Assembly (NCBI GenBank): GCA_024641505.1
Contig: JAHECY010000006.1
Span: 1,512-65,511 of the forward strand
From: Gammaproteobacteria bacterium
Lineage (GTDB): Bacteria; Pseudomonadota; Gammaproteobacteria; SG8-11
Length of the DNA: 64,000 nucleotides
Direction of reading: 5' to 3'
The notes below the pieces were generated by a model. It was not told the origin of the DNA. It ran no database searches and worked only from the letters and a program-made list of their open reading frames with translations. Shown piece by piece: positions 7,918 to 37,201 of this stretch. The position numbers and the translations under genes are program-made. Every line of letters begins with the position of its first letter. The first letter of the stretch is position 1.

Positions 7918-8354
7918 TAGCGTGATTCCCCGCGCCGGGCGAGCCAGGCAAGTGCGTCGATCGCGGCCTGGCGACACTGGTCCGGCGACGGCGCTTGCGC
8001 GGCGAAGCAATAGTGTTGCAGGCGCATGAGAAATTGCTGCCAGTCCGGTTGGTGTCGCGCGCTGAATGCCACGTCTGACAATTGTGGTTGCGCAAAACCT
8101 TCGCGCAGGCAAAGCACGATACGCCGACATGCCTGACGCGCGTCCCGTTGCTGCGACAGCGACGCGCGCAACACGCGCCGCAACTTGCGCCGCGCCCGCG
8201 GCCGCGGTCGATTACCGAGCACTACGACCGCGGCGACCAATATCACTAATAACGCCATCAACGCCCCGTACCAGCCACCGGCAAGCGCCTCGGTGGCCGG
8301 TGCCGGCGCCACGATATCCACCCAGGTCCCGCCCATTATTACGCTATCGCCCAT
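7917..8354 (-). CDS. Small membrane protein of bat operon (DUF4381-like)
   Basis: ORF between the DUF58 and VWA genes. Single TM (YGALMALLVILVAAVVVLG) followed by a basic stretch, in the position of the DUF4381 gene in Bat operons. Start codon uncertain. Confidence 0.4.
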   Translation of the reverse strand: MGDSVIMGGTWVDIVAPAPATEALAGGWYGALMALLVILVAAVVVLGNRPRPRARRKLRRVLRASLSQQRDARQACRRIVLCLREGFAQPQLSDVAFSARHQPDWQQFLMRLQHYCFAAQAPSPDQCRQAAIDALAWLARRGESR

Positions 8355-10960: not shown

Positions 10961-11251
10961 CAAGCGTTTGCTGCGCACCAATAAGAGACATGGTGCGCAA
11001 TACCTGCCCAGGGCACTTCCATTTAAACTGATTCTAACTATTCAATCGCGGTTTTATCGTTTTTTCCTACATCGACACCCAATCTTATCATTGCTCGTTA
11101 TTAACTCCCCGAGGTGGATAAATCCCCTCCTGAAAGTCTATGTAATTACCGTATTTCAGGGCTTCTCGACCCTTACTATTCTGGTAAACTCTCCAGGTCT
11201 TCGAGCGGTACCCAGATCGGTCACCGTTACGTTTTCCACAGGGGGGAAACC

Positions 11252-13045: not shown

Positions 13046-13253
13046 ACATCACATTTTCAACATCATGCACCCTATTTGTTCAAAATATTCAGCCATTTAT
13101 AAAACCTTACATATGTTCTCCCTGTAAAGAATTATTACAAATAGACGACAAATGCACTAAGGATTTTAACTGAGTTGTTTACTTTGTTTTACACCTAATA
13201 CAGTGACAACGACTCATTTGCCTTGAATATAACCCCCAAGAGGAGATCGACAC

Positions 13254-13664
13254 ATGCCATTGTTTACCTGGAGTAATGAATACAGCGTGGGCGTAGGTAC
13301 CATGGACAGCCACCACAAAACCCTGTTCGACATCATGAACAAGCTTCATGACGCCATGAAGCAGGGTCAGGCGGAAGACCGCATCGCCGCCACCATCCGC
13401 GAACTGGTGGACTACACTGTATATCACTTCGGTGAAGAAGAAAAAATCATGGAGCGTATCAACTATGCCGGTATCGGCGCGCAAAAACGCGAACATGTCG
13501 TATTTGTGGACAAAATGAACGAGTATAAAGCCAAGGCGGACAAGGGTCAGGCTATCTTCACCGTGGCGGAAGTCGCGGCGACCTCTGTGACATGGCTGCG
13601 GGAACACATTCTGGGCATGGACAAGAAATACGAAGAAACTATGAAGGCGCACGGGATCAAATGA
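13254..13664 (+). CDS. Bacteriohemerythrin (hemerythrin-like O2/iron-binding domain protein)
   Basis: 136 aa. MPLFTWSNEYSVGVGTMDSHHKTLFDIMN...HF.EEE...H motifs typical of single-domain bacterial hemerythrins. Good RBS (agaggag). Confidence 0.8.
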   Translation: MPLFTWSNEYSVGVGTMDSHHKTLFDIMNKLHDAMKQGQAEDRIAATIRELVDYTVYHFGEEEKIMERINYAGIGAQKREHVVFVDKMNEYKAKADKGQAIFTVAEVAATSVTWLREHILGMDKKYEETMKAHGIK

Positions 13665-13682
13665 TCTCTGGTCACTGACCTG

Positions 13683-13722
13683 ACCTCGGGGGGTGCGCAT
13701 CGCACCCCCCTTTTTTTTCCCC
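13683..13722 (+). terminator. Rho-independent terminator after hemerythrin gene
   Basis: ggggggtgcgcatcgcacccccc hairpin followed by a T-run (tttttttt). Confidence 0.6.
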
Positions 13723-14000
13723 CTCGGCAGTACGCAATCCCATTGCAGGTGCGCAGCGTCCCCGCCATTGGTGCTCCCCCCTCGATATTGCGGAATCACA
13801 TTTGGGATGCGCATCGCACCGCTTTTGTTGCGGCCCCTCGTTAGTGCGGAATCACATTCGGGGTGTGCATCGCCCACCCTTTAGTGCGCGCCCTCGACAG
13901 TGCGCACCTTGGGGGCGTATGACGCACCGATCTTTATCTGGTTTTGTCACCATCGAGAGCACATGAACGAAAAGCAAAAGCCGGTGCGTCATACGCACCC
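13683..14000. repeat. Cluster of about 5 degenerate REP-like palindromes (GGTGCG..CGCACC variants)
   Basis: ggtgcgcatcgcacc, gatgcgcatcgcacc, gtgtgcatcgcccacc, ggcgtatgacgcacc and ggtgcgtcatacgcaccctac lie in the convergent intergenic region. Confidence 0.6.
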
Positions 14001-15046
14001 TACGGGGGCAGAATGCTTTCCAGACCGGTAATATGGGTGGTATCGGCGTCACGAGCGAAAGAGGATTCGACAAGCCCGGTAATATCGTTCGTTGTTGACA
14101 ATCCGAAGTGCTGCATGAGATCGGCTATTTTCTGGATATCTGCGTCACGCGGCGCGTAGTTGTCGAAATCGATGCGGTTTTTGGGCGTGTTCAGGGTGTA
14201 CATCACCAGATCGTAGGGCTGACCCCAGTACTTGGAGGCAATGCGTCCGGCTTCCTCCGGATTCTGCTTGGCCCATTGCAGGGCCCGGGCGGCCGCGGTC
14301 ACCATATACTTCACCACCTCCGGCTCATCCTTGATCATGCGGTTTTTGATGATCGTGAGATTGCTGAAAAATCCGGGCCACACTTCCTCGGCATATTTAA
14401 ACTTCTTTGACTCTCCGGACATCAACGTCTTAGCGGCAAACGGTTCGCCGACATAGTACGCATCCAGCGCGCCGGAAGACAATGCCGCGGCCATATCCGG
14501 TGGATTCATTTCCACGACGTTGACCTGACCGGTGAGATTGGCTTTTTCCAATTGCTCCATGATACTCAGATTATGGCCTGAAAACCGCATGGGCACGGCG
14601 ACGGTCTTGCCAATCAAGTCATTCCAGGTATTGCCGTTGAGATCCTTGCGTACCACCAGGGTACTCTCATTGCGGTTACCGACGAGTATGATCTTGACGT
14701 CTTCGCCCTGCTGTCGCAGCACAACGGACAAAGGCGCGATGATAAACGCCGCGTCGATCTGATTATTGCGCAAAGACTCGCCCATTTCCGCGAACGAAGC
14801 GAATTTCAGGGCTTTAAAACGAATGCCTTTGGTTTCCTTGCTCACCTTGTCCAGAATTGGCGCCGCCAGATTGCTGAACACGGGCATATAGCCCATGGTA
14901 ATCACTTTGCGGTCGCTGTCTTCGTTATTGACGTATTCATGCATGAAGGTGATGAAAATCAACCATGCGGTAATCGCCGCCGACAGCTTCCATACCATGG
15001 GCATTTGAGATATGGGTCTAAAATTGTCCCGTTGATTGCTATCCAT
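14000..15046 (-). CDS. ABC transporter substrate-binding protein, NitT/TauT (nitrate/sulfonate/bicarbonate, NMT1-like) family
   Basis: 348 aa with an N-terminal TM/signal (WKLSAAITAWLIFITF) and an NMT1/SsuA-like body. Alternative start at 15004. Confidence 0.75.
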   Translation of the reverse strand: MDSNQRDNFRPISQMPMVWKLSAAITAWLIFITFMHEYVNNEDSDRKVITMGYMPVFSNLAAPILDKVSKETKGIRFKALKFASFAEMGESLRNNQIDAAFIIAPLSVVLRQQGEDVKIILVGNRNESTLVVRKDLNGNTWNDLIGKTVAVPMRFSGHNLSIMEQLEKANLTGQVNVVEMNPPDMAAALSSGALDAYYVGEPFAAKTLMSGESKKFKYAEEVWPGFFSNLTIIKNRMIKDEPEVVKYMVTAAARALQWAKQNPEEAGRIASKYWGQPYDLVMYTLNTPKNRIDFDNYAPRDADIQKIADLMQHFGLSTTNDITGLVESSFARDADTTHITGLESILPP

Positions 15047-15460: not shown

Positions 15461-16255
15461 TCAAACCGCATAACTGACCCCGAGTTTTAAAAATATATCG
15501 TCACGAATTTCCGCCAGTTCCTTGTTGGTCTCGAGATTGCGTGGCCGTTCAAACTTCATTTCATATACCGCTTTTACCTTGGTGGGTCGATCGCCCATCA
15601 CTATGATGCGATCTGCCATAATCACCGCGTCTTCGATAAAATGCGTGACCATGATCATGGTTTTACCGATATAGCTGTGGATATTGACCACTTCCTCACG
15701 GATGCGCAATTGCGTCAGATAGTCCAGGCCGGTAAACGGTTCGTCCATAAATAACATGTCGGGATTAACCACCAGCGCCCGGGCCAATTCGGCGCGCCGC
15801 TGCATACCACCGGAAAGTTGATTCGGGTAGTGATTTTCAAAGCCAGTCAATTCCACCATATCAAGAAATTCGAATACCATATGGCGTTTTTCCTGTTCAT
15901 CACTGATATGGCGCACTCCCAATTCCACGTTTTGCCACACGGTCATCCAGGGCAGCAGGCCATTGTGCTGAAACACAAAAATATGGTCGGCGCTGGGTCC
16001 TTTTACCTCTTTGCCATCGATCAGTACCCGACCGGAACTAGGTGTATCGAAACCGGCGATGATACGCAGCATGGAAGACTTGCCGCAACCGGAAGCGCCA
16101 AGCACACACACCATTTCCCCGTCCTGAAATTCCAGATTCACGTTATCGAGAACCCGCATTATTTCCCCGGGTCGTGCCGCATCTCCAGGCTGGCGTTTCA
16201 CCGACCGGCGGTTAACGTATTCCTTGGTGAGATTTTCTATTTTTACGTGCCCCAT
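15461..16255 (-). CDS. ABC transporter ATP-binding protein (NitT/TauT family)
   Basis: Walker A GASGCGKSS, signature LSGGMQRRAELARAL, Walker B LFMDEPFTGLD. Start chosen at MGHVKIENLTKEY (16255). The ORF track extends to 16297, overlapping the permease stop. Confidence 0.8.
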   Translation of the reverse strand: MGHVKIENLTKEYVNRRSVKRQPGDAARPGEIMRVLDNVNLEFQDGEMVCVLGASGCGKSSMLRIIAGFDTPSSGRVLIDGKEVKGPSADHIFVFQHNGLLPWMTVWQNVELGVRHISDEQEKRHMVFEFLDMVELTGFENHYPNQLSGGMQRRAELARALVVNPDMLFMDEPFTGLDYLTQLRIREEVVNIHSYIGKTMIMVTHFIEDAVIMADRIIVMGDRPTKVKAVYEMKFERPRNLETNKELAEIRDDIFLKLGVSYAV

Positions 16256-16275
16256 AATCCACTGCCTTGTATGCG

Positions 16276-17052
16276 CTATTTTTTTGCTTTCGCCCATTTC
16301 AGATAGTCCACGGAAGTCACCCGGATCATTATGATATCCAGCAACAAGCCGATGAGACCGATTGTAATCATGCCCACCATGACGTTATCCATGCGCAGGG
16401 CATTGCGCGCGTCGACAATGAGATAACCCAGCCCCGACTGTACCGCAATCATTTCCGCCGCCACCACCACCAGCCAGGCAATAGCCACGGTGAGACGTAT
16501 CGCGGTCACTACTTCGGGAATGATCGCCGGCACCACGATCTTGGTAATCACTTCGATACGCGAAAAATTGAAGTTGGCCGCCACCTGAAAATACATCGGG
16601 TTGATGGATTCCACCGCCACCGCGGTGGCCACCACCAGCGGAAAGAAGCTGGCGAGAAATATCAGAAATATCGCCGGTTGATCACCGATGCCGAACCAAA
16701 GCATGGCCAAGGGAATCCAGGCCAGCGGCGAAATCGGGCGCAGAAACTGGATCAGCGGGTTGATCAGGCTTTTTGCCACGGTCATGCGACCCAGCAGTAT
16801 GCCCAAAGGTATGCCCAGCATCACCGCCAGGTAAAACCCGACCGTTACCCGGTATAAGCTGGCCACGGAATGTTTGAGCAGAGAGCTGTCCTGCGCCAGA
16901 TCCAGAGCGCTTTGCATCACCACCATGGGCCCTGGAAATACCTGATGACTCCAGTCGCTATAGCGTGTGATGCCGTCCCACAGCAAAAATATCACCACGA
17001 ACGAAAGCACGGGAAACAGTATGAACGAACGCTTTAATGCTTTGCGCATCAT
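16276..17052 (-). CDS. ABC transporter permease (NitT/TauT family)
   Basis: 258-aa polytopic membrane protein with a BPD-transporter-type permease body. Lies 18 nt downstream of the ParA-like gene. Confidence 0.8.
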   Translation of the reverse strand: MMRKALKRSFILFPVLSFVVIFLLWDGITRYSDWSHQVFPGPMVVMQSALDLAQDSSLLKHSVASLYRVTVGFYLAVMLGIPLGILLGRMTVAKSLINPLIQFLRPISPLAWIPLAMLWFGIGDQPAIFLIFLASFFPLVVATAVAVESINPMYFQVAANFNFSRIEVITKIVVPAIIPEVVTAIRLTVAIAWLVVVAAEMIAVQSGLGYLIVDARNALRMDNVMVGMITIGLIGLLLDIIMIRVTSVDYLKWAKAKK

Positions 17053-17069: not shown

Positions 17070-18050
17070 CTACAACGCCAGAATTTCTTTAGCCAGGGAA
17101 AAATACTGCAATCCGGCACGGCTGCTTTTGTTGTAGTACATAGTGGGCGAGAGCACGATCTGGGACTGAGGTACATTGTCATCCTTTTCGATGATGGTCT
17201 GAAACAGACTACCGGTGAAGGCGCGATTCATCTTGGTATAGATGACTTTTGATGCCATATTGTCACGATCAAACATCGTCACCAGGATATGGGAGCGTAT
17301 ATCATGCTGGGACTTTTCCCGGATTAAATTAATCATGCTCTGAATATGATTGATACCGTTCATGGAAAGAAATTCCGCCTGAGTGCATATCGCCGCCATA
17401 TCCGAAGCCAACAGGGCGTTGAGAGTAAAAAAATCGCCGGACGGCGGCGTATCAATGAGCACGTAGTCGAAATACGGCTTCACCGGCGCCAGCATGTCGC
17501 GCAGCATATACTGAAAGTTCTCACTATTTTGTTGTTTGTTCAGCAATGTCATCTTGGTATTGGACGGTAACAGCCAGAAATAAAGACCGGTTTTCACGAT
17601 GTAGTCCGCCAGGGAATTTTCGGGATCGCTGCTGGCATCGAAAAACGAACGCGCATCACGGTAGTTCAGCAGCAGGCTGAGATTGGCTTGGATATCGAAA
17701 TCAATGACCAATACCCGTTTCTTCATCAATACCAGTGAGGTCGCCAGGTTGAGGCAGGTAGTGGTCTTGGCCACACCGCCCTTCTGGTTGCAAATTGTAA
17801 TTACTTTACAAGACCGGGCTGAATCTGACATATCCATGCCATCGATGATTACCGGCTTTTGCGCCTTGCGCACGAAGTCGGGGTTCGACGCGGCATCCGG
17901 CGCTGGCAATGATAACAATGGTTGCCGAATGGAAAACACATGGCCGCAACGACAACAGCGTGCCCGGGAAACGCGTTTTTCCAATAAATGCTCGTCGATC
18001 CGGTAACGTGTCGCGCACTCGTCACAAGTAACAATCATATGTCCATCCAA
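17070..18050 (-). CDS. ParA/MinD-family ATPase with N-terminal MJ0042-type zinc ribbon
   Basis: The N-terminus MIVTCDECATRYRIDEHLLEKRVSRARCCRCGHVF has CxxC...CxxC. It is followed by a deviant Walker A (KVITICNQKGGVAKTTTCLNLA) and a ParA/MinD body. Confidence 0.75.
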   Translation of the reverse strand: MDGHMIVTCDECATRYRIDEHLLEKRVSRARCCRCGHVFSIRQPLLSLPAPDAASNPDFVRKAQKPVIIDGMDMSDSARSCKVITICNQKGGVAKTTTCLNLATSLVLMKKRVLVIDFDIQANLSLLLNYRDARSFFDASSDPENSLADYIVKTGLYFWLLPSNTKMTLLNKQQNSENFQYMLRDMLAPVKPYFDYVLIDTPPSGDFFTLNALLASDMAAICTQAEFLSMNGINHIQSMINLIREKSQHDIRSHILVTMFDRDNMASKVIYTKMNRAFTGSLFQTIIEKDDNVPQSQIVLSPTMYYNKSSRAGLQYFSLAKEILAL

Positions 18051-18145: not shown

Positions 18146-19225
18146 TCAGCCTGCGGTTACCACCCGCTCCTCGCCATTGCGCTCGCCCAATACACCGGCG
18201 ATTTTTTCACTAAGTTTTAGATCACTGACCACGAAATCGACCACACCTTCTTCGATCGCGCACTGCGCCAGATTTGGATACACGCAGGTTTCGGTATTCT
18301 GTGCAATGGTGGTACCGTGCTTTTTCTTAATTTCCGAAAAACCCATTTGGCCGTCATTGCCCACGCCAGTGAGCAACACACCCACCGCATGCTGATCGAA
18401 AACGCTGGCTGCGGACATGAATAAGGCATCCAACGGCTTGTGTCGCCCCGGCCCCTTTTTCAAGCACGGCTCATTGGCTTCGTTGAGCGCAATTATCATC
18501 GGTTCCTTATAGGAACACACATAGCAGACCCCCGCTTCCAACACCATGTCTTCCTGTGCGGCTTCGACTTTCCATTGCGTATATTCGTTGAATTGCTTGA
18601 CGAAGTTAGGGAGAATTTTTGGCTCGATTTCCTGCACCACCACCGCCGCCGCCGGAAAATCCGGTGACAACTCCGACATAATACGGATTATGGTATTGGG
18701 CCCGCCGAGAGTGGTACCCAGGGTCAGCACGCCTTCCAGTGTCTGATAGCCGTAGCGTTCCGCCAAATTGGCGCGCAGATCGACTTTTTGCAGCTTTACC
18801 CTGCGTACATTGTTAATATTTTCCGCGGCGGCGATCTTCACCCGGTCAATGATCTGCTGCCCCTGGCTGTGAATGTCGGTGGAAATGGCGCCGGAAGGCT
18901 TGGGCAGAAAATCGACGACGCCCAACCGCAATGCTTCAAAAGTGATATCACCGTGGAAAAACAGTGAACTGAGCATAACGATCGGCACCGGCGACTCTAT
19001 CATAATATGACGAATCGCCTTGATGCCGTCCATCACCGGCATATCAACATCCAGGGTCACCACATGCGGTTTCAGAGCTTTGATTTTTTCCAGAGCATCG
19101 CGACCGTTACGCGCGCTGCCGACTACTTCGATCTCGGCGTCCTGTTCCAGGATATCGCGCAACGCTTTCACCATGAAGGAAGCGTCATCCACGATCAACA
19201 CTTTTATCTTATCACTCATAGTCAT
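18146..19225 (-). CDS. CheB-like protein (REC + methylesterase fold) with apparently degenerate catalytic triad
   Basis: REC domain (KVLIVDDASFM...VTLDVDMPVMDG). The esterase-domain segment LGTTLGGP aligns with E. coli IGASTGG (Ser164 to Thr). VVQEIEP aligns with ITQHMPP (His190 to Glu). GVGNDG keeps Asp286. Confidence 0.8.
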   Translation of the reverse strand: MTMSDKIKVLIVDDASFMVKALRDILEQDAEIEVVGSARNGRDALEKIKALKPHVVTLDVDMPVMDGIKAIRHIMIESPVPIVMLSSLFFHGDITFEALRLGVVDFLPKPSGAISTDIHSQGQQIIDRVKIAAAENINNVRRVKLQKVDLRANLAERYGYQTLEGVLTLGTTLGGPNTIIRIMSELSPDFPAAAVVVQEIEPKILPNFVKQFNEYTQWKVEAAQEDMVLEAGVCYVCSYKEPMIIALNEANEPCLKKGPGRHKPLDALFMSAASVFDQHAVGVLLTGVGNDGQMGFSEIKKKHGTTIAQNTETCVYPNLAQCAIEEGVVDFVVSDLKLSEKIAGVLGERNGEERVVTAG

Positions 19226-19257: not shown

Positions 19258-22200
19258 TCAATGCACATTATCGGGCGGTGGCGCAGGCGGCAACGCCTGT
19301 TGGCGTTTCGGCCCGCGGCGAATACGGGTGCGTAGTTGCTGCGCTTGATCCCGGTGCATTTTCGCCTGTCGACCAGAAGTCATTTTTACGAGTTCATGGG
19401 CGTCGAGAATCAGGGAAATACGGCCGTCACCAACGATGGTAGCGCCGGAAAATCCGCTTTTCTCCTGCACATAGTCCGCCAGGGGTTTGATTACCACTTC
19501 TTCCTGACCGATCAATTCATCCACCACGAAACCGGTACGCGCGCCCTCGGTGTTGACAATCACCACAAATACCTTGTCTGTGTTTTCATCCGCCTTGATA
19601 CTGAACAGCTTGGAGAGATGAAAAATCGGCAGGGCATGACCGCGCAGATGAATAACTTCGACCCCCTCGACTTTTGACGTCTCGTGGCGGAAAATTCGCA
19701 CCGTTTCATCGACATTGGCCAGAGGAATGGTAAACAAGTCGCGACCGACGCGGATCATTAAGGCATGAATAATCGCCAGCGTCAGGGGAATCTTCAAGCG
19801 CATCTGGGTACGCACGCCGGGTTTGGAATCGATTTCGAGAATGCCGTTGAGTTTTTCGATATTGCGCTTGACGACATCCATGCCAACACCGCGACCCGAG
19901 GTACCGGTGACCTTTTCCGCGGTAGAAAATCCGGGCATCAGGATCAATTGCGTCAGGTCCCGGGCATTCATGCGTTCCAGTTCTTCCGGGGTATATAACC
20001 CTTTTTGCTGCGCCTTGAGCTTGATGCGTTCCGGGCTGATACCGCGGCCATCATCGGTGACTTCGATGACGATATTATTACTTTCCTGGTAGGCATTCAG
20101 GGTGAGCGTACCCGCTTCCGGCTTGCCGGCCTTGCGCCGTTCTTCACGGTTCTCCAGGCCATGATCCACGGCGTTGCGAATGATGTGAATCAACGGATCC
20201 GACAATTCCTCGACGATCATTTTGTCCAATTCCGTATCTTCGCCTTGAATCACCAGCTCCACCTTCTTGTCGGAGGTGTGCGTCAGATCGCGCACCAGGC
20301 GCGGGTAACGGTTGAAGATCTGCGAAATCGGCAGCATGCGCATCTTCATCACTCCTTCCTGGAGTTCATTGGAAGTGCGGCCCAGGGAGGCAATCGCCTC
20401 TCCAAGTCGGTAGGTAAACGTACGCAGCATTTTAATTTCTTTTTGATCGATACCGGCCACGTCCTTCAGATAATTCTGCAATACCCGCATTTCATTGGAC
20501 AGCTGGAAAAAATAGGATCGGTCCACCACCAACTCGCCGACCAGATTCATCAACGAGTCGATTTTTTCCGCATCGACCCGCATGCTTTTCTTGATCTTTT
20601 TTTCCATCGTGTCCAGAACCCGACGCTTGTCGCCGGTACCTGGGGCGGACTCAGGACGAGGCGCAGTCGGAGCTTGACCGTTACCCTTAGTCTGCTGCGT
20701 TGGCGTTTTTGCCTTGGCTTGGGCCCCGGCCACCATTTGGTCGTATACCTGGTTCAGGGTTTCCTGCTTGTTGGCGCTCGCCTCTTTTTCCATTACCGAA
20801 TCGAGAGCACCGCTGAGTTGGTTGTAAAGTTGGTTCTCAGCAACCGCCGGGGCTGCCTTCCTGCCCGTGGCCGGCGCCCGAGCCGGTACCGGTACCGTTT
20901 CAATGATTTCACCTTTGATGGCTGTGGTCGGTACATCACGCAGCTGTGGAAACATGCCATCCAGTCGCGCCAGATATTTGTTCATGAATTCCAGTGGTGC
21001 TTTCCCGCCACCGGCCCAGGCGGAACTTGCCTGCTCGATGCGCGTACGCCACTCTTCATACAACGATGCCAAATCCTGGTAACCCATGTAGTTGGCGGCG
21101 GACCAAAGACGCCCGATGGTATCGTCACACCACTGCAGATGCTGCACCTTGTCCGGCTCCTTTTGCAGCTCATTGACGGATTTCCGCAGAATACTCGCTT
21201 GCTCCCGCAAATGATGCATAAAAATGCCGAACAATTCCTGATCGTGCTCCTCCTCGTAGGAAGAACCCACCGTCTCCGTAATCGCATCCACGGATTCCAG
21301 GCTCGCTGCAGGGATCGCGGGTGATGCTGCCACCGAAAGACCGGTACTGCCATCGATGCGGTGACTGATTTTCATCACCAGATCGTCAATCGCCGACAAT
21401 TCCTGTTCGTGGATATTCAATTCATTGACCAGTTGCACGATACGATCCCGGGCATCGATCAACAAGTCGATAGTGCCGGTGCTCGAAGACATTTTACCCT
21501 GGCGTAACAGATCCAACAGATCTTCGAGGCGATGTGACAGTCGGGAAATTTTCGCCAGTCCGGTAATTTGCGAGCCACCCTTGATGTTGTGGACCGGCCG
21601 GAAAACGTCGTTAAGGAATTCAAGATTCTGGGGGTCGTCGCTCAATTGCAGTAATATGGTTTCGATTTCATCCAGGTGGTCGCCGGCTTCGATTATAAAA
21701 TCCTTGAGCAGACCCATATTGATTTCCATTTCCGGCTCCGGCTTCAGAATCACGCGTGGCTCGGGTAACTCATCAGCAGGTACCGCCGTTGACGCAGACG
21801 CCGCATCAGCCGCGGTATCGGGTTCCGCAATATCAACCCCTCCACCCACACCCATATTCATGAATATGTTCATGACATCGTCGGTGACATCCGACACAGC
21901 CGGCATCAAACCGTCTTGGTCGGCGGACACTGACGGTGCCGGAGATTCCCTACCGTTCGCGTCCATGGCTGGCTGATGAGGGGCCGTTTGCCAGGTATCC
22001 AGATCGGGAAACAATGTGGTGACACGCCGTAAATATTCGTGCATGAATTCCAGATCCGGCACTTCCCCACGCGCCACATCCTGACGTGAATCACTCAAAA
22101 TACCACGCCATTCCCCATACATGTCCACCAGATCCTGGTAACCCATATAGTTGGCCGCAGACGACAGACCCTCGACCACGGCTCCACACCATTCTAAATG

Positions 22201-22767
22201 CTGATCCAGATCGGGTTCGCTATCCTGCTGTGCCACCGCCTGCCGCAAGGTATGCACTTGTTCCCGCAGATGACTCATGAAAATCCCGAACAACTCCTGG
22301 TCGTGCTCTTCCTGATAGGTCTGCGCATCGGGCATAGCGGTTTCGGCCACGGTGGTCGCGGCGGCCAGCGGCGTATCGTTTTGGTCTTCAATCAGTACTG
22401 TGAGCTGATCCACCAGATCTTCGATATCAGATTGCTCTTCCTGAAACTCCTCCAGTTCCCGCACCAGACGCAAAATGCGATCGCGGGTTTCAATGAGCAA
22501 ATCGACGGTATCATTATCCGACTTCTTCTTTCCCTGACGCAAAATGTCCAGCAAATCTTCGAGTCGATGCGACAACCGCGACACTTTGTCCAAACCGGTG
22601 ATCTGAGACCCACCCTTGATGTTGTGCACCGGCCGGAAAATGTCATTGAGAGTGGTCAGATCATTCGGATCTTCCGCCAGCCTCAACAGCAGGACTTCTA
22701 TCTCATCCAGGTGTTCGCCTGCTTCGACAATAAAGTCGCCAAGTAATGCCAGGTTTATTTCACTCAT
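19258..22767 (-). CDS. cheA: CheA-family histidine kinase with two HPt domains (tandemly duplicated N-terminal module), dimerization, HATPase and CheW-like domains
   Basis: 1169 aa. HPt1 (FRPVHNIKGGSQITGLDKVSRLSHRLEDLLD) and a near-identical HPt2 (FRPVHNIKGGSQITGLAKISRLSHRLEDLLD). The H-box-less kinase core HIIRNAVDHGLE...DDGRGI...GRGVGMDVV. C-terminal CheW-like domain. Confidence 0.9.
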   Translation of the reverse strand: MSEINLALLGDFIVEAGEHLDEIEVLLLRLAEDPNDLTTLNDIFRPVHNIKGGSQITGLDKVSRLSHRLEDLLDILRQGKKKSDNDTVDLLIETRDRILRLVRELEEFQEEQSDIEDLVDQLTVLIEDQNDTPLAAATTVAETAMPDAQTYQEEHDQELFGIFMSHLREQVHTLRQAVAQQDSEPDLDQHLEWCGAVVEGLSSAANYMGYQDLVDMYGEWRGILSDSRQDVARGEVPDLEFMHEYLRRVTTLFPDLDTWQTAPHQPAMDANGRESPAPSVSADQDGLMPAVSDVTDDVMNIFMNMGVGGGVDIAEPDTAADAASASTAVPADELPEPRVILKPEPEMEINMGLLKDFIIEAGDHLDEIETILLQLSDDPQNLEFLNDVFRPVHNIKGGSQITGLAKISRLSHRLEDLLDLLRQGKMSSSTGTIDLLIDARDRIVQLVNELNIHEQELSAIDDLVMKISHRIDGSTGLSVAASPAIPAASLESVDAITETVGSSYEEEHDQELFGIFMHHLREQASILRKSVNELQKEPDKVQHLQWCDDTIGRLWSAANYMGYQDLASLYEEWRTRIEQASSAWAGGGKAPLEFMNKYLARLDGMFPQLRDVPTTAIKGEIIETVPVPARAPATGRKAAPAVAENQLYNQLSGALDSVMEKEASANKQETLNQVYDQMVAGAQAKAKTPTQQTKGNGQAPTAPRPESAPGTGDKRRVLDTMEKKIKKSMRVDAEKIDSLMNLVGELVVDRSYFFQLSNEMRVLQNYLKDVAGIDQKEIKMLRTFTYRLGEAIASLGRTSNELQEGVMKMRMLPISQIFNRYPRLVRDLTHTSDKKVELVIQGEDTELDKMIVEELSDPLIHIIRNAVDHGLENREERRKAGKPEAGTLTLNAYQESNNIVIEVTDDGRGISPERIKLKAQQKGLYTPEELERMNARDLTQLILMPGFSTAEKVTGTSGRGVGMDVVKRNIEKLNGILEIDSKPGVRTQMRLKIPLTLAIIHALMIRVGRDLFTIPLANVDETVRIFRHETSKVEGVEVIHLRGHALPIFHLSKLFSIKADENTDKVFVVIVNTEGARTGFVVDELIGQEEVVIKPLADYVQEKSGFSGATIVGDGRISLILDAHELVKMTSGRQAKMHRDQAQQLRTRIRRGPKRQQALPPAPPPDNVH

Positions 22768-22788: not shown

Positions 22789-23139
22789 TCAGCTTCCCAC
22801 TAAGGCGAGAATCTGTTCGGATTTGTGTTTATTCACCAGACCAATGGCGCCGATGCGTTCCACTTCCCCGCGGTATTTATCCTCATCCATATTGGAGAGA
22901 ATCAGGATGCGCGCCTTGGCGTCTCGAGCCATGATTTCCTTAGCCGCGGTAATCCCATCCATGCCCCGCATGGTGATATCCATGGTGACCAGATCCGGGC
23001 GCAGACGCTCATACATTTCCAGTGCATCGGCGCCATTGGCCGCCTCCCCTACCACCTCATGGCCAGCATCACGCAAGGTTTTGACGATCACCTTGCGCAT
23101 CATGGTCGAGTCTTCCACCACCAGTATTCGCTTGCTCAT
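22789..23139 (-). CDS. cheY: CheY-like single-domain response regulator
   Basis: 116 aa. ILVVEDSTMMR...DLVTMDITMRGMDG...K motif set of a REC domain. Confidence 0.85.
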   Translation of the reverse strand: MSKRILVVEDSTMMRKVIVKTLRDAGHEVVGEAANGADALEMYERLRPDLVTMDITMRGMDGITAAKEIMARDAKARILILSNMDEDKYRGEVERIGAIGLVNKHKSEQILALVGS

Positions 23140-23179: not shown

Positions 23180-23722
23180 TTACTGCACTATGGATTCTTC
23201 GCCCAGCGACAGCTCTTTGTAATTTGTTTCCTTCAACATATGGTACTCTTCGTTGAACAGGATGCGTTCGAAGCTCAGGATGATCAATAGCTTGCCGTTG
23301 ATATCGCACACCCCGTGGATGTACTGATTTTCCAGGCCCACCACAACGATATCCGGTGGCGGCTCTACTTTATCCTGCTCCACCTTCAGTACTTCCGTGA
23401 CGCGATCGACGATAAAGCCGATAACGCGTTCTTTGATGTTGAGAATCAAAATCCAGTTGCCTTCGCCGCCACCTTCCCCCATGTAAAGGTAAAGGCGCTT
23501 GCGCAAGTCGATGACCGGAATTATATCGCCGCGCAGATTGATTACCCCTTCGACAAATTCAGGCGAATTGGGCACCGCGGTAACCGGAGCCGATCGGATG
23601 ATTTCCTGAACCATCAGGATGTCGACTCCGAATTCTTCCTCATTGATCTTGAATCCCACCAATTGCATCAAGCCTTCGGCTTCGGCATCGGTCAAGGTAT
23701 CAAATCTAATTCGTTCTGCCAT
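23180..23722 (-). CDS. cheW: CheW coupling protein
   Basis: 180 aa with a CheW-like domain (EEFGVDILMVQEIIR...VINLRGDIIPVIDLR). Confidence 0.88.
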   Translation of the reverse strand: MAERIRFDTLTDAEAEGLMQLVGFKINEEEFGVDILMVQEIIRSAPVTAVPNSPEFVEGVINLRGDIIPVIDLRKRLYLYMGEGGGEGNWILILNIKERVIGFIVDRVTEVLKVEQDKVEPPPDIVVVGLENQYIHGVCDINGKLLIILSFERILFNEEYHMLKETNYKELSLGEESIVQ

Positions 23723-23812: not shown

Positions 23813-26272
23813 CTAGCTGATCTTGAACTGCGCTACCTGGCGTGCGAGAGCTTCTGACTGCTCCACCATGGTTTCCATGATGTCAGCGTTGGCGCCGGCA
23901 CCTTCCACCGTTTGCACCGCCGCTTGTCCCGATTCCTGGGACAGCTTGGTAATCGCCTTGGAACGTTGCGCCTGCAGACCGGTCATATGCTGCATTTCCT
24001 CACCGCTTCGTACTACACCTTCCATTTCATGACCGATGATGCGAGCGTTTTCATTAGCTTCCATAACCAGCGCCGAGATCTTGTTCGACGCCTGCAACAT
24101 CTTACGCAGCGAATCTTCCGCAACGGTACGACGCTTGGTATTTTCCGTAGCCATTTCACCGATTTGTTGCGCCAATGTGTTCAACTCGCGAATCAAACCC
24201 TGTACTTCAGTGGTACTGCCACTGAGGGACTCCGCCGAACGTTCGATGTCTTCGATGGAGCGCATGTTATCGCGACCGCCTTCGTCGATTTTGCGCAGCG
24301 CTTCCTGGGACTGGTCAGTCAGTTTTACCCCGTCCGCCACGTTGTTTGTGGAGTCCTTGATGAGCTGGGTGATTTCCTTGGCGGCCTCGGAAGACCGCTG
24401 GGCGAGTTTACCTACTTCATCCGCAACCACCGCGAAACCCTTACCGTGCGCACCGGCACGCGCCGCTTCTACCGCGGCGTTCAAGGCGAGCAAGTTGGTT
24501 TGTTCGGCGATTTCCGTGATTACCGAGATGATTTCCGAAATCTGTTCGGAAGATCCAGCGATGGCGCGCATACCTTCTACGGTAGCGGCCACTGCTTTCC
24601 GGCCTTCTTCCGCCGCTGCCAGCGAACCGCGACCGAACTGGGTCGCCTGTTGTACGGAACGTTGCATGGTATCCACCGCCGCCACCATTTCGTTGATAGC
24701 GCTGGTGACTCGCATTACCATCTTGCCCTGTTCCTGCGCGGACACCGCCACTTTCGCACCGGCATCACCCATTTCCGATACGCGGGACATGGTTTCGCCC
24801 GCTTCCCGGTCCTGGTTCCGTTGGGATTCGGATACGATACTCATCTTTTCCTGCAATTCGCGCAACAGCCCTGAGGATTTTTCCGCAGCGCCCTGCTGAC
24901 CACCGGCTTTTTCGTTGATCTGACCGGCGGTGGCGCCCATTTCCCCGATAACCTTTCCTGCAGTTTGGGAACGATTGAGCTCTTCCTCGGCACGCTTTCT
25001 GTTGTTGCCGGCGCGAGTCGCGGCTTCCGTGGCGTTTCTGGCGACATCACCGGCCGCGGAGTTTACCTCGACAAACGCGTTCTTGATAACATCCATCATA
25101 CCGTTGAACGATAACGACATGGCGCCGATTTCATCCTTGGATTCCACCGGCACATGAATGGTAAGGTCGCGTTTCTCGGCGATGTTCTGAATGGTGTCCG
25201 CCATCCGGATAACCGGACCCGCGATCACCCGGGTCAAGAACACAATCAATATTGCGCTGATCAGCAAGCCGGCTACCAGCAGGCCCCATTCGATGTTTTT
25301 CAAGCGTACGGTAAGAGTCGCCGCGGACGCTACGTCGTCCTGCAGCAATTTGTCCTGGCTTTCCACCAATTCAGAAAGCACCTCAACGATCGCCTTAGCG
25401 GTCGGTGCAGCGCGGGTCGCCAGCCAGAAATTGGCCAGGTTAGCTTCGGCGGAAGCCTGGATCTTAAACATCTTCTCGGGCAACGGTTCGAATTCCGCGC
25501 GTACCTGTTTGAACTGGTCAAATGCCAGTTTTTGTTCCGGTGACAGGTGCTGGTAATTATTGGCCAGGTCATTGAAACGCAGGGTATTCTTGGACCATAG
25601 ATTTTCGAAGCTGGTTTTCAAGGACTCATCTTTGGTGAGCAGGTAGGCGCGAATACTCGCCAAACCCAGACCGGTGGTACCGCGCACGTCAGCCATCATG
25701 TACAGAATGGATTTGCGTAATGGCGTACCCTCCAACTGGCCTTCCAAGTCGATCATGCGCGTGATCAACTCGGCGAGCTTGGCGGATCGCGGCTGTGCTT
25801 CTTCCGCCAGCATTTTCAGCGCCGGTTCCTGATCGACAGTGTTGGCGATGTCTTCGACTTCCTGCTGGTACTTGCGGAACAACTCCAGTTCCTTGCCGAT
25901 TTTATCAACGCGCTTGATGTTTTCCGCGTTGGTAAAATTTTTCGAGAATCCCTGCAACGCATCGAAGTTTTTGTCGATCCAGTTTTTCCAGCTCTCATCT
26001 CGTTGGGTCTTAAATTGTTCTTTACCCAAAAGCATCCAACCACGCAATGCCGCCAATGATTCGTTGACGCCGTTCAACAAGGAAAGACTGGCGCGGGCCA
26101 CCGGTGTTCGCAGTTCCGCAACCCGATTCGACAGAGTTTGCACCTCTGTTACCTCATAGATCGTTATACCTACCGCTGATACGAGCAACAATGCCATCAT
26201 GCCGAAGCCTGTGCCCAGCTTGAATGGCAGTCTCATATTAGCAAAGAGACCAAAGTTGGTATTCTTAGCCAC
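23813..26272 (-). CDS. Methyl-accepting chemotaxis protein with about 290-aa periplasmic helical sensor, HAMP and MCP signalling domain
   Basis: TM1 [17 protein letters not shown] and TM2 [21 protein letters not shown]. The highly conserved signalling tip [35 protein letters not shown]. No C-terminal NWETF-like pentapeptide. Confidence 0.9.
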
Positions 26273-26485: not shown

Positions 26486-27589
26486 TTATTGCAAGTCGTT
26501 AATCACCTGCGCAAGTTGGCTGTCGCTTACCGTTGTTGCGTCCGGACACCAGGCGAGGGCGGCGTTGGCCATATTCTTGTACAAACAGGTTTTCAGGTCC
26601 TGCACCACGGCGCTTCCACCAACCCGGTGTATTTCCTCGAGGCCTTCGGCCCCATCACTGCCGGTGCCTGACAACACTACGCCCACGGCATTCTCGCCCA
26701 TGGCCTCAGCCACGGAAAACATCAACATGTCCACCGCACCCTTACGCGAAGCGAACGGCGCCGGTTGCACATGCAGGCGACAATTGTCGTCCGTTTGCCT
26801 ATGTACGGTCATGTAGTTACCGCCGGCGTTCAGATAGCACACCCCGGGACGCAGCAATTCATCATGCACGGCGCGCTTGACCTCGACTGCACTATAGTTG
26901 TTGAGGTAAGTGGCAAAGGCGTCAACGTACTCCTGGGCGGCGTATAAAGTAACCATATAAGCAACCTGCCGGTCAGCGCGCAAGTTGGGCACGATTTTCA
27001 GTAACGCACCATAACCACCTTCCGCGGCACCAATCGCGACGATGCGATGGCATTCCGGAAGCGACACGTCCTGTCCCATCAATTCAAGATTGGGTAGATT
27101 ACGGATATATTTGATCGCTTCCACTTCCACCACCGAGGCAAATTTCACCTTGTTACGAATTTCACCTTCCTGAGCGGAAACATCCTCGCCATTGACCGCG
27201 GATGGCTTGGCGATAAAATCCACTGCACCATAGCGCAGCGCGTCAAACGTCACCGCCGCGCCTTCCATGGTGAGGCTCGACAGCATCACCACCGGCGTCG
27301 GATAGCGAATCATGATATGTTTCAAAGCGGTGACTCCGTCCATTTCCGGCATGCGGATATCCAGCGTGATGACATCGGGCCTGTGCTCTTGCACCGCCGC
27401 CAGCGCCTCGCGGCCATTTTTGGCCACCGCCACGATTTCCACATCCTTGTCGTTCTGGAAAATACGGGTAACCGAATCCCGGAGAATCTTGGAGTCGTCC
27501 ACGATAAGCAACTTCAATACTTTACCGGTGCCACCGTCAATCGCCTCGGCAAACTCGTCTGAATGCTTTTTTACAGTGCTCATGCTCAT
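26486..27589 (-). CDS. Second CheB-like protein (REC + methylesterase fold) with apparently degenerate catalytic triad
   Basis: REC (LLIVDDSKILR...ITLDIRMPEMDG). AIGAAEGG aligns with IGASTGG (Ser to Ala). MVTLYAAQEY aligns with ITQHMPPGF (His to Tyr). SGTGSDG keeps the Asp. Start overlaps the upstream gene's stop (ATGA). Confidence 0.8.
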   Translation of the reverse strand: MSMSTVKKHSDEFAEAIDGGTGKVLKLLIVDDSKILRDSVTRIFQNDKDVEIVAVAKNGREALAAVQEHRPDVITLDIRMPEMDGVTALKHIMIRYPTPVVMLSSLTMEGAAVTFDALRYGAVDFIAKPSAVNGEDVSAQEGEIRNKVKFASVVEVEAIKYIRNLPNLELMGQDVSLPECHRIVAIGAAEGGYGALLKIVPNLRADRQVAYMVTLYAAQEYVDAFATYLNNYSAVEVKRAVHDELLRPGVCYLNAGGNYMTVHRQTDDNCRLHVQPAPFASRKGAVDMLMFSVAEAMGENAVGVVLSGTGSDGAEGLEEIHRVGGSAVVQDLKTCLYKNMANAALAWCPDATTVSDSQLAQVINDLQ

Positions 27590-28284
27590 CCTAGATATTT
27601 TTTCAGTTTTTCTTTCAAGGCCGCGGAGTCCACAGGCTTGGTCATGTACTCATCGGTACCGGACATTTTTCCTTTAAGTTTGTCAAACAACGTGTCACGA
27701 GAGGTAAGCACGATCACCGGCACATCCTGCAGACGTTCGCTTTTTTTCATGGCGGCCAGCACCTCATATCCGTCTTTTTTAGGGAGGATCAAGTCCAGCA
27801 GCACCAGATCCGGTACATCCCGACCCAACAGAGCCAAGGCCTCCTCCCCGTCCCTGGCTTCGGAAATGAAATATCCTTGATTCGCAAGTGATTCCACCAA
27901 CACCTTGCGCGCCAAACCGCTATCTTCCACAATCAAAATCTTTTTCAAGCCCATGGACGGCGACTGGTTGAAGTCCACGCCTAACTCGAGGAAGATGTCC
28001 TCGTTGCTCATGGCACCAACGGGCGCCGTCGTCACATTAGCGCTGCCCTGGGCATCGCCTTTAAAAAAGAACTTGGCACGTTCGATTTTCTTGATTTCCG
28101 CCAAGGCCGGAGCGCCACGCATATTGCGAAAGAACACATCGACGATATTGCCGGTATTCAGCGAAAAGATGACGCCATGGCCCTGATCCGTGTACATGTA
28201 CATAGCCCCGCTGTACCGTTCCTTGCACAGTTTCAGCAATGCCCTGGCGGCATCCTTGAAGGCTACAAGTTCATCTTTAGACAC
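27586..28284 (-). CDS. Response regulator with N-terminal about 110-aa uncharacterised domain and C-terminal REC domain
   Basis: The C-terminal half KILIVEDSGLARK...DLVLLDLILPKKDGYEV...TSRDT...K is a REC domain. The N-terminal domain (MSKDELVAFKDAARALLKLCKERYSGAMYMYTDQGHGVIFSL...) is not recognised. Confidence 0.7.
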   Translation of the reverse strand: MSKDELVAFKDAARALLKLCKERYSGAMYMYTDQGHGVIFSLNTGNIVDVFFRNMRGAPALAEIKKIERAKFFFKGDAQGSANVTTAPVGAMSNEDIFLELGVDFNQSPSMGLKKILIVEDSGLARKVLVESLANQGYFISEARDGEEALALLGRDVPDLVLLDLILPKKDGYEVLAAMKKSERLQDVPVIVLTSRDTLFDKLKGKMSGTDEYMTKPVDSAALKEKLKKYLG

Positions 28285-31205: not shown

Positions 31206-31270
31206 CCGTGCCGAACATCCGGCCCGTCCTTTGCATACATAACGCAGGATCAACAACTTATTTTACAATA

Positions 31271-31849
31271 ATGAAACAAAAGCTCCAGACCCGTCTTGTT
31301 AACTATTTCATGCTGATCGCCGTCGCCGCCATGCTTATTGGCGTGGAATTCTATTTTGAAATGAGCCGCACCGAGGTCACCAGCGAAATCTGCACAATCG
31401 CCGAACAACAGGCGGCCGGCGCTGACGGTGCCCTGCCCCTGGACAATTTACGCAATAAGATCGTGATCATGTTCGGGGTTTTGACCATTGTCGTGGCCAT
31501 TGTACTCACCATGTTCATCCGCAATATCACCGCTCCTTTACAAAAAATGGCGGATGTCGCGGCGCGCATCAACGAAGGTGATCTGAGCCTGAGCGTACCC
31601 ATCGAAACCCATGATGAAATCGGTCAGGTGGGCGATGCTATCAACGAACTCACCAGCAATTTGCAGGAAGTGGCCACCATGACCAGTACCACCGCCCAGG
31701 ATACCCTGGGTCAGATCGAACGTCTGCTGGAGGCCACACGCAAGGGTGACCAGATACCGGAAACACAAGCCAGGGAGATTCGCGCCAGTCTGCAATCACT
31801 GATTGAGTTTGTGGATTCCTTCAAACTGCTGAAAACGGATATCGCCTGA
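31271..31849 (+). CDS. Small membrane protein consisting of two TM helices and a HAMP domain, no recognisable output domain
   Basis: Start at MKQKLQTRLVNYFMLIAVAAMLIG. Second TM VIMFGVLTIVVAIVLTMFI. HAMP motif NITAPLQKMADVAARINEGDLSLSVPIETHDEIGQVGDAINELTSNL. Confidence 0.55.
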   Translation: MKQKLQTRLVNYFMLIAVAAMLIGVEFYFEMSRTEVTSEICTIAEQQAAGADGALPLDNLRNKIVIMFGVLTIVVAIVLTMFIRNITAPLQKMADVAARINEGDLSLSVPIETHDEIGQVGDAINELTSNLQEVATMTSTTAQDTLGQIERLLEATRKGDQIPETQAREIRASLQSLIEFVDSFKLLKTDIA

Positions 31850-31852: not shown

Positions 31853-32608
31853 ATGGAAGCACTGGGCCTGATCATCGCCGGCGTCTGCATCGCGTCCGCC
31901 GCCATGGCCGTCGGTATTGGCGGCGGTATCTTATGGACGCCATTGCTGATCCTGGCTTACGGTTTAACACCTCAGGAAGCGGTAGCCACGTCGCTGATGA
32001 TCCAGGTGGTGGGCATGGGCAGCGGCACCCTGGCCTATATGAAGGCCAAACTCACCCAGGTAAAACTCAGCCTGGTGTTTTTCTGTGCCGCGCTACCCGG
32101 CGTCATTATCGGCGGCTTCCTGAGCGTGCATCTCTCCCAGGACGCCGTGCAAATGATGTTGGGCGTGATGGCCATGACCGTGGCGGTATTGTTCGTCGCC
32201 GGCCAGGATCAGTTCAGTGAAGGCGGCAATTACGCGCCGGACCGGCGCAATATCGGCAAGTTACTGCCGATTCCGGCATTCTTCGGTTTCATGATGGGCA
32301 CCCTGTCCGTGGGGATCGGCGAGTGGCTGGTGCCGGCGCTGCGCCAGCGCCTGCATCTGGAAATGCGCCAAGCCATCGGCACCGTGATCCCGGTAATGTT
32401 TCTGCTCGCCATCTGCGCCTCCCTGGTCCACTGGAGTCAATCGGACAGCCTGCACTTGAACTATTTCGCCTATGGCGGCATCGGCACCTTTGTCGGCGGC
32501 CAGATCGGGCCGCGCATTTCCCAACGCATTGACGAACGCATCTTGAAACAAAGCTTTATCTATCTGATGACCTTGATCGGCATACATATGATTTTTCAGG
32601 CGATCTGA
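31853..32608 (+). CDS. TauE/SafE (DUF81) family anion exporter membrane protein
   Basis: 251-aa polytopic protein with the typical internally duplicated 4-TM architecture and a GIGGG motif. Begins 4 nt after the preceding stop. Confidence 0.7.
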   Translation: MEALGLIIAGVCIASAAMAVGIGGGILWTPLLILAYGLTPQEAVATSLMIQVVGMGSGTLAYMKAKLTQVKLSLVFFCAALPGVIIGGFLSVHLSQDAVQMMLGVMAMTVAVLFVAGQDQFSEGGNYAPDRRNIGKLLPIPAFFGFMMGTLSVGIGEWLVPALRQRLHLEMRQAIGTVIPVMFLLAICASLVHWSQSDSLHLNYFAYGGIGTFVGGQIGPRISQRIDERILKQSFIYLMTLIGIHMIFQAI

Positions 32609-35617: not shown

Positions 35618-35623
35618 GGCGCC

Positions 35624-37140: not shown

Positions 37141-37201
37141 ACATTCCATAGTTACCCGTTCCGGCAAGATTCTCAAGTTTCGTCGCCATGCAACCGATAC
37201 C

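Follow-up and report, generated by a model that had tools for sequence, protein, structure and literature searches.

In a 64,000-nucleotide stretch of the genome of a Gammaproteobacteria bacterium (lineage SG8-11, contig JAHECY010000006.1; the whole stretch is referred to below as the window), a minus-strand gene inside a chemosensory operon encodes a 322-residue protein in which an N-terminal zinc ribbon (ZnR) is joined through a variable linker to a ParA/Soj-type ATPase domain. We call this protein ZnR-ParA. It belongs to a conserved, unstudied family in which the ribbon stays fused to the ATPase, the ATPase motifs are intact, the gene is invariably linked to che genes, and no match to the MinD, BcsQ or plasmid ParA families is found. 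Full-text searches of the literature found no paper that describes a zinc-ribbon ParA in a chemosensory setting, and the databases carry members of the family under such names as "zinc-ribbon domain-containing protein", "AAA family ATPase", "ParA family protein" and "chromosome partitioning protein". The reading that we favour, with a probability of about 0.45, is that ZnR-ParA is a ParC-like array- or cargo-positioning ATPase in which a built-in zinc-ribbon docking domain has replaced the separate adaptor. A first-pass annotation of this DNA had proposed a candidate new subtype of array- or cargo-positioning ATPase at this position; the fusion of the ribbon in orthologues, the absence of a known-family assignment and the conserved che linkage now support that proposal.

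A zinc ribbon fused to a ParA/Soj-type ATPase

The gene and its parts are located as follows.

17070..18038, minus: ZnR-ParA gene, 322 aa, from ATG 18038 to the stop codon at 17070-17072 (open reading frame (ORF) list, translation, Pfam)
17925..18038, minus: N-terminal Cys4 zinc ribbon of the MJ0042/ZitP/GltJ type, aa 1-38, with C5, C8, C28, C31 and F35 (Pfam, NCBIfam and PDB matches)
17811..17924, minus: variable linker, aa 39-76, disordered over aa 43-53 (alignment and AlphaFold2 (AF2) model)
17070..17810 (stop codon included), minus: ParA/Soj-type ATPase domain, aa 77-322 (AAA_31, PDB relatives, invariant residues)
17763..17783, minus: deviant Walker A motif KGGVAKT, aa 86-92, with a family-specific Ala where Gly is usual

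The listed ORF (17070..18050, minus) opens at a TTG, and its translation starts with LDGH-MIVTCDEC. The true start is the ATG at 18038, because all homologues begin at that Met; M1 is invariant in a 23-sequence alignment with identities down to 36%. An identical 322-aa protein on an independent assembly (P0001) is called from the same ATG, and a Shine-Dalgarno-like GGATGGA lies 4 nt 5' of it. The zinc ribbon and the ParA/MinD-type ATPase are thus encoded in one ORF, as the first-pass annotation had it from the translation and as Pfam and NCBIfam bear out, and the gene does lie between a CheB-like gene (18146..19225) and an ABC (ATP-binding cassette) permease gene (16276..17052), all on the minus strand. 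The gaps of 18 nt claimed for both sides come close on the downstream side, where the gap to the permease gene is 17 nt, and fail on the upstream side, where 107 nt separate the CheB-like stop codon from the ATG (95 nt if TTG 18050 is counted).

The ribbon at aa 1-35 matches Zn_ribbon_4 (PF13717) in Pfam with an E-value of 1.4e-11 (44.6 bits against a cut-off of 30.3), and the MJ0042_CXXC domain model TIGR02098 (33.7 bits against 20.9) is the sole NCBIfam model that ZnR-ParA matches above the cut-off. The cysteine pattern, first given as CxxC-N17-CxxC, is actually CxxC-N19-CxxC (C5, C8, C28, C31), which is the exact spacing of TIGR02098, ZitP and GltJ. None of the 23 aligned homologues departs from C5, C8, C28, C31 or F35, and R27 reaches a conservation of at least 90%; the conservation of the cysteines and F35 is far beyond chance. 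The AF2 model predicts a four-strand ribbon (E2-4, E11-13, E23-27 and E34-38) with a predicted local distance difference test (pLDDT) score of ~90. With residues 1-48 as the query, the only significant PDB matches were 2NB9 (E 1.7e-4) and 7ZOK (E 1.9e-4), both with Cys at 5, 8, 28 and 31. The latter is AgmX/GltJ of Myxococcus. The former carries the PDB label 'Uncharacterized protein' and was identified as the zinc finger of Caulobacter ZitP from its sequence and the literature, the string '2NB9' not being found in the ZitP paper (PMC5182065).

In ZitP the ribbon, 43 residues long, directs polar localisation and binds PopZ, a hub protein; this binding needs the four Cys, W35 and R24/R27 (PMC5182065). 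ZnR-ParA shares with ZitP and GltJ/AgmX the same Cys4 ribbon, the cysteines at 5/8/28/31 and membership in the TIGR02098/PF13717 family, and with ZitP also an aromatic residue at 35 (W35 in ZitP, F35 in ZnR-ParA) and an Arg at 27. F35 and R27 stand where ZitP has residues needed for binding, and the role best supported for the ribbon of ZnR-ParA, judged by sequence and by analogy, would therefore be protein docking or switching rather than catalysis or DNA binding. The ZitP and GltJ ribbons are likewise N-terminal, are followed by a flexible linker and serve in the organisation of polar or motility machinery; they sit, however, on membrane proteins (a transmembrane segment plus DUF3426, or GYF plus a transmembrane segment), whereas the ribbon of ZnR-ParA sits on an ATPase. 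PopZ, the ligand of the ZitP ribbon, is described as the polar organizer of alpha-proteobacteria (PMC5182065).

A ribbon that binds DNA, which would make the protein an ATP-dependent transcriptional autoregulator of the type Ia ParA kind or would let it hold on to the nucleoid, appears very improbable to us. Type Ia ParAs such as P1 ParA do have an N-terminal DNA-binding domain, 3EZ2 is among the fold matches of ZnR-ParA, and several residues of the ribbon are basic. The fold of the ZitP ribbon also resembles that of the DNA-binding protein Cren7, but ZitP lacks the DNA-contacting fifth strand of Cren7 (PMC5182065), and both characterised ribbons of the ZitP/GltJ type bind proteins (PMC5182065, PMC11135422). 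The length of the upstream gap, which varies in homologues from an overlap to ~107 nt, speaks against autoregulation as well. No conserved repeat or operator came to notice, though no search aimed at one was made.

The linker that follows is variable both in length (~10-60 residues across the family) and in sequence in the 23-sequence alignment. In the window protein aa 43-53 have a pLDDT below 50 in the AF2 model, and a linker motif P-[VI]-x-I-[DE]-G is conserved only in the closest gammaproteobacterial relatives. A ribbon on such a linker might act as an intramolecular switch, staying folded on the linker or the ATPase until it is released by a signal such as a small GTPase or the phosphorylated form of a response regulator; chemosensory output would then control ATPase dimerisation, which would make the protein an effector of output or polarity and not a positioning factor. 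We regard this as unlikely, although GltJ offers a model for it: the GltJ ZnR binds its own linker, MglA-GTP displaces it, and MglB is then recruited (PMC11135422). Linker residues 61-76 of the window protein are modelled with high confidence by AF2 and conserved in close relatives, four receiver-domain proteins of the chemosensory module have no obvious outputs, and in Desulfatitalea alkaliphila an MglA-like GTPase gene and a Roadblock/MglB-like gene lie 0.7 kb from the module, all of which would suit a switch. The MglA/MglB-like pair occurs at one locus only, however, and the linker is not conserved family-wide.

The ATPase domain carries every hallmark of the deviant Walker A ATPase superfamily (xKGGxxK[ST], the signature Lys, the Walker A' Asp and the Walker B Asp): the signature K86, the Walker A K91/T92, D113/D115 and the Walker B D196 (in IDTPPS) are all invariant (n=23). 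In Pfam, AAA_31/CbiA matches aa 77-291 with an E-value of 6.9e-39, and MipZ, ParA and BcsQ are matched more weakly, the BcsQ model with a score of 32.7 against a gathering score of 21.3. The AF2 model of ZnR-ParA has a pLDDT of 88. The nearest structures and sequences are the chromosomal ParA/Soj proteins 8RAY, 2BEK, 1WCV and 6IUB (27-29% identity, template modelling (TM) score 0.87-0.92), and the Foldseek comparison of the model with 8RAY, 2BEK and 6IUB gave a TM score (target) of 0.87-0.92 and a root-mean-square deviation of 1.7-2.0, a predicted fold of the ParA/Soj kind. McdA, ParA2, BcsQ, FleN/FlhG and MinD rank behind these.

ZnR-ParA has the deviant Walker A, the catalytic Asp and the fold in common with chromosomal ParA/Soj. 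It differs from them in the extra ZnR, in a ParA_partition score below the cut-off, in the replacement of the Soj segment PRNVRLSEAP by the family motif I-x-x-D-x-K-x-x-E-S-Q, and in the lack of an adjacent ParB gene; no ZnR-ParA locus has a ParB-domain gene, while P0146, a generic relative, is accompanied by parB. BcsQ, MinD and FlhG/FleN share the superfamily fold, and the Pfam models for BcsQ and MipZ are weakly matched, but their structural similarity to ZnR-ParA is below that of Soj. All NCBIfam equivalog scores fall far below their cut-offs: 63.5 bits against 212.9 for MinD (TIGR01968), 55.6 against 157.85 for BcsQ (TIGR03371), 70.4 against 180 for ParA_partition (NF041546) and 74.3 against 348 for RepA (TIGR03453). 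None of the NCBIfam models named for ParC or PpfA is matched by ZnR-ParA. The clear assignment to a known family such as BcsQ, which would have spoken against the first-pass proposal, was therefore not found. The gene context agrees, with no bcs genes in the window or the homologous loci and no min or flagellar genes near ZnR-ParA. Alignment and structure comparison revealed no C-terminal extension or membrane-targeting amphipathic helix, and a MinD-type membrane-targeting helix is missing because ZnR-ParA stops at the last core helix.

A search of 5.8 billion proteins with the window protein returned 3286 matches, and PF13717 is present in 118 of the best 120, which reach down to 44% identity. 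The distant member P0131, used as the query, gave 811 matches at E <=1e-40 with PF13717 in all of the best 120, so that the two queries pooled give 238/240 best matches with the ribbon. In a HMMER scan of 1.84 billion cluster representatives, ~18 clusters (50% identity level) scored above 176 bits; below the family the scores fall to those of generic ParAs at <= ~150 bits, which makes this a compact family. A profile scan of metagenomes added 5 further full-length members, the other 75 hits being generic ParAs, and a single-protein scan of genome contigs yielded 7 loci.

A few database entries (P0057, P0098 and P0136) have no ribbon, which might suggest an annotation artefact, or an ordinary orphan ParA that carries the Cys pattern by chance. 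At L012, however, the sequence MIIVCDKCKTKYDV...RCSYCNHGF stands in frame directly 5' of the annotated start of P0057, and at L096 MKVTCPKCETAYRL...RCRKCQHVFRV stands in frame ahead of P0136. These two "ribbon-less" calls are miscalled starts, and P0098 is probably another. The in-frame ribbons, the invariant cysteines, the E-value of the Pfam match and the 238/240 count refute the artefact, and the start-site error that the first-pass annotation had raised as an objection was not found: orthologues keep the ribbon fused. Public annotations of several family members begin at an internal codon and lose the ribbon, so domain-architecture surveys on called proteins undercount the fusion.

The chemosensory module

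The operon around ZnR-ParA and the genes that travel with it consist of the following features.

27586..28284, minus: response regulator with a ~110-aa unassigned N-terminal extension, first gene of the operon (Pfam)
26486..27589, minus: CheB-like paralogue 1, with Ser->Ala and His->Tyr (Pfam, alignment with E. coli CheB)
23813..26272, minus: transmembrane methyl-accepting chemotaxis protein (MCP) with 4HB periplasmic domain, HAMP and signalling domain (Pfam, transmembrane analysis)
23180..23722, minus: CheW, 180 aa, without an N-terminal extension (Pfam)
22789..23139, minus: CheY-like single-domain response regulator
19258..22767, minus: CheA, 1169 aa, with duplicated Hpt units (Pfam)
18146..19225, minus: CheB-like receiver (REC)-methylesterase paralogue 2, directly upstream of ZnR-ParA, with Ser->Thr and His->Glu (Pfam, alignment)
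16276..17052, minus: ABC permease (Pfam)
15461..16297, minus: ABC ATPase (Pfam)
14000..15046, minus: NMT1-type binding protein, membrane-anchored (Pfam)
13999-13983: terminator-like hairpin after the binding-protein gene
31208..31849, plus: small HAMP protein with two transmembrane segments, which travels with TauE and the module in other genomes
31853..32608, plus: TauE permease, paired with the HAMP protein

The order response regulator, CheB-like protein, MCP, CheW, CheY, multi-Hpt CheA, CheB-like protein, ZnR-ParA and ABC importer, with the HAMP protein and TauE nearby, recurs at loci whose ParA is 39-60% identical to the window protein. Genes of the che operon stand directly upstream of ZnR-ParA in 13/13 homologous loci searched by tblastn with window proteins, and also in the window, in D. 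alkaliphila (L107) and in L096; the embedding in a chemosensory operon, already recognised in the first pass, was found by this neighbourhood survey at every locus examined. Directly downstream, most of the 13 loci have the ABC genes, or HAMP-TauE and then the ABC genes. An exception is L019, at which ZnR-ParA comes straight after CheA and is followed by a PilZ gene instead of a transporter. The hosts of the module are metagenome-assembled genomes of Gammaproteobacteria and members of the Desulfobacterota, including the cultured D. alkaliphila.

No CheR gene is present in the ~15 module loci. Compared with E. coli CheB (S164, H190, D286), both CheB-like proteins of the window lack the catalytic Ser and His, and those of L004, L009, L012 and L013 also lack Ser164, with His190 mostly lost (Tyr or Glu). 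The CheB-like proteins of the module may be pseudo-enzymes, and with no CheR and degenerate CheBs, methylation-based adaptation is probably absent. The array, on the other side, is membrane-bound, because the MCP has two transmembrane segments. CheA contains a tandemly repeated unit of ~340 aa that combines an Hpt with a conserved EEHDQELFGIF... region; the window CheA has two such units, and the 1550-aa CheA of D. alkaliphila (L107, 2812-7464) has three. A PATAN/DUF4388 domain in the N-terminal extension of the first response regulator was considered and found no support in Pfam even at E <=1; the deltaproteobacterial versions do have this domain, joined there to a CheB-like protein.

The ABC importer and the HAMP/TauE pair accompany the che genes across Gammaproteobacteria and Desulfobacterota (the window, L004, L005, L009, L013, L016 and L107). 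The NMT1/SsuA-type binding protein might serve the 4HB-type MCP as a co-receptor; L105, the che operon of the relative P0147, likewise encodes an NMT1-domain protein. A terminator-like hairpin was seen only after the last gene of the operon and none around ZnR-ParA, a weak indication in that promoter and terminator counts were not above those of shuffled sequence. The G+C content is 51-55% across the module and the adjoining pil genes, with no island boundary in composition.

This arrangement brings in a further explanation, in which the ATPase would serve the transport half of the module, with a part in the assembly, localisation or gating of the ABC importer, the HAMP protein or TauE, or in their physical coupling to the array, much as BcsQ organises cellulose synthase and FlhG organises flagellar assembly. 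The permease gene follows ZnR-ParA by 17 nt with no terminator between them, the ABC genes, or HAMP-TauE and then ABC, come directly downstream at nearly all loci, and the score for the Pfam BcsQ model exceeds the gathering threshold (32.7 vs 21.3). We nevertheless judge a transporter role quite unlikely. The NCBIfam BcsQ equivalog is far under its cut-off, the nearest relatives without a ribbon are linked to che genes and paired with CheW, and L019 has a PilZ gene after ZnR-ParA in place of the transporter. We know of no ParA-type ATPase that acts on an ABC importer.

Possible kinship with ParC and PpfA and the proposed function

Reviews of the ParA family name only ParC and PpfA for chemosensory arrays (PMC11407121). 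ParC (Vibrio, Pseudomonas, Halothiobacillus) and ZnR-ParA are both ParA-like ATPases encoded within a che operon just after cheA/cheB, and the cognate receptors are membrane-bound in both cases. The Walker A of H. neapolitanus ParC lies at residues ~9-16, which leaves it without an N-terminal domain; for this protein the earlier statement that ParC has no N-terminal ribbon holds. ParC needs ParP, a CheW-domain adaptor encoded immediately downstream, whereas ZnR-ParA has the ribbon and no ParP-like gene: the position of parP is taken by the ABC permease or the HAMP protein. The che systems differ too: CheR is missing from the ZnR-ParA module, both its CheBs are degenerate, and its CheA has multiple Hpt units. 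PpfA of Rhodobacter/Cereibacter sphaeroides, which works with TlpT, is likewise a ParA-like ATPase encoded in a che operon, and its role is to partition a chemosensory cluster (PMC11407121). Its cluster is cytoplasmic and is handled over the nucleoid, whereas the MCP of the ZnR-ParA module is transmembrane and the window protein has no basic residue equivalent to Soj R189. No ZnR is described for PpfA in the literature examined.

The closest true ribbon-less relative is P0137 (176 bits), and the 23-nt gap upstream of its gene leaves no room for a ribbon. Its operon encodes CheA-REC, a CheB that retains both catalytic residues (Ser and His), CheR, ParA and a CheW of 220 aa with the CheW domain beginning at residue 81; at the P0147 locus the order is CheY, ParA, CheW (208-218 aa), CheR, CheW. 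In both, ParA is immediately upstream of a CheW extended by an N-terminal ~80 aa. This layout matches the parC-parP arrangement, in which parC directly precedes parP, a gene with a CheW domain, within a che operon (PMC5706961). An extended CheW is absent from the ZnR-ParA modules, where the only CheW, of 161-184 aa, is encoded upstream of ZnR-ParA. The other near matches are mixed, one standing beside a sigma-54 regulator and one forming a parA-parB pair.

From gene context and homology we infer a positioning activity, which might work in the following way. ZnR-ParA would be an ATP-dependent dimerising positioning ATPase of the che-operon-associated (ParC/PpfA-like) radiation, and its core, like that of other ParA proteins, would alternate between a monomer and an ATP-sandwich dimer. 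The ribbon on its flexible linker would be a built-in docking module that acts through F35 and R27. It would tether the ATPase to a landmark of the cell pole or envelope, or to a component of the co-encoded array, and so would take the place of the separate ParP-type adaptor of ParC systems. The cargo would most likely be the membrane-bound array of the operon's MCP, CheW and CheA, whose placement or inheritance would be controlled. That cargo would be a chemosensory system without methylation-based adaptation, and it looks tied to polarity or surface motility.

Several points weigh against a ParC-like positioning role. R189 of B. subtilis Soj, which we take to be a non-specific DNA-binding residue, corresponds to position 288 of ZnR-ParA; this is Lys or Arg in 17/23 members, but the window protein and the two relatives closest to it have Asn, a residue that makes a nucleoid-matrix mechanism doubtful for the window protein. 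Gene context does not decide on the cargo, because the ABC importer and HAMP/TauE co-occur with ZnR-ParA as strictly as the che genes do; L019, with CheA directly before and PilZ after, is the one informative exception. No partner with an ATPase-stimulating N-terminal peptide was identified. Finally, orthology of ZnR-ParA to ParC is a lead and not a result, because ParC and PpfA were compared by description and layout instead of by sequence and because the phylogeny does not resolve it. A neighbour-joining tree on Kimura distances for 50 ATPase domains (the family, generic ParAs and E. coli MinD) with 100 bootstraps supported the family split at 14-19%, and the MinD root fell inside the ZnR-ParA family; the tree was not used as evidence.

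Genes beside the module and meaning of the family

Several neighbouring genes touch on polarity and motility. In D. alkaliphila (L107) a MglA-like Ras-family GTPase (15681-16289, minus) and a Roadblock/LC7 MglB-like protein (16355-16759, minus) are encoded 0.7 kb beyond the module, at this locus only; the pair is intriguing because the homologous zinc ribbon of GltJ binds MglB. Homologues of a small PilZ protein (~139 aa) stand beside the module in L013 (14941-15360, minus), L016 (7100-7384) and L019 (2481-2849, directly after the ZnR-ParA gene), and separate PilZ-domain genes lie near the module in L107 (17162-17755). A homologue of the ~139-aa protein was not found in the window. The recurring PilZ genes hint at a link to cyclic di-GMP. 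In the window, pilS, pilR, a type IV pilin gene, pilB, pilC and pilD lie beside the module, followed by coaE and zapD (33278-43386, plus); pil genes adjoining the module were not seen at the other loci.

Large acidic proteins (16-25% Asp+Glu) with a C-terminal peptidoglycan-binding domain are also encoded beside the module, with LysM in the window (28701-31025, plus) and with SPOR in L009 (18037-20951, minus) and L013 (15628-17538, plus). A single transmembrane segment was computed for the L009 and L013 proteins, and one was placed by eye only, at ~aa 432-452, in the window protein. Homology of the window LysM protein to these SPOR proteins was rejected as BLASTP between the window and L013 proteins gave nothing significant; with L009, tblastn found one short shared stretch with 50% identity over 36 aa and the motif [NK]LWxELxxxWPV. 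The acidic LysM/SPOR proteins are possible landmark proteins or DamX-like bystanders.

At the other end of the operon, a membrane HAMP-adenylate/guanylate cyclase gene (11114-12817, plus) is convergent with the operon end, and L012 has a GGDEF protein at a comparable place. A 232-aa ORF at 13179-13877 (minus), with no family match, an odd composition and an overlap with a strong bidirectional hairpin (13688-13710), is probably not a gene. Further out, a MoxR AAA ATPase, DUF58, VWA and VWA-TPR stretch (3441-10325, minus) resembles a BatA-like aerotolerance-type operon and has a G+C content of 61-65%, against 51-60% for the rest of the window.

A wider proposal, which we put forward tentatively and hold to be doubtful, is that ZnR-ParA is an adaptor-less positioning ATPase plugged by its ribbon into a polarity hub or small-GTPase module, where it would organise an undescribed methylation-independent chemosensory machine coupled, physically as well as genetically, to the ABC importer and TauE and controlling type IV pilus or polarity behaviour. 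The hub may be the neighbouring acidic peptidoglycan-anchored landmark protein, or a MglB/Roadblock-like protein. The machine would comprise two catalytically dead CheB-like receivers and the multi-Hpt CheA, and its hosts would be sediment Gammaproteobacteria and Desulfobacterota.

ParA/MinD ATPases are the main cargo-positioning machines of bacteria, and their cargo specificity is an open question (PMC11407121, PMC10241942). The chemosensory module described here, with no CheR, degenerate CheBs and a linked ABC importer and TauE, is unstudied and widespread in uncultured sediment bacteria, and the hypothesis on ZnR-ParA is testable because the module is present in one cultured species, Desulfatitalea alkaliphila. 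ZnR-ParA would also offer a direct handle on specificity determinants, since the ribbon can be swapped, mutated (F35, R27, Cys) or used as bait. The protein is probably a new variant among the ATPases that place chemoreceptor arrays, and it should be moderately surprising to specialists in ParA/MinD proteins or chemotaxis: the characterised ParA/MinD systems all rely on a separate partner (ParB, MinE, McdB, ParP or TlpT), and a docking ribbon fused to the ATPase, if true, would be a single-polypeptide answer to the problem of cargo specificity.

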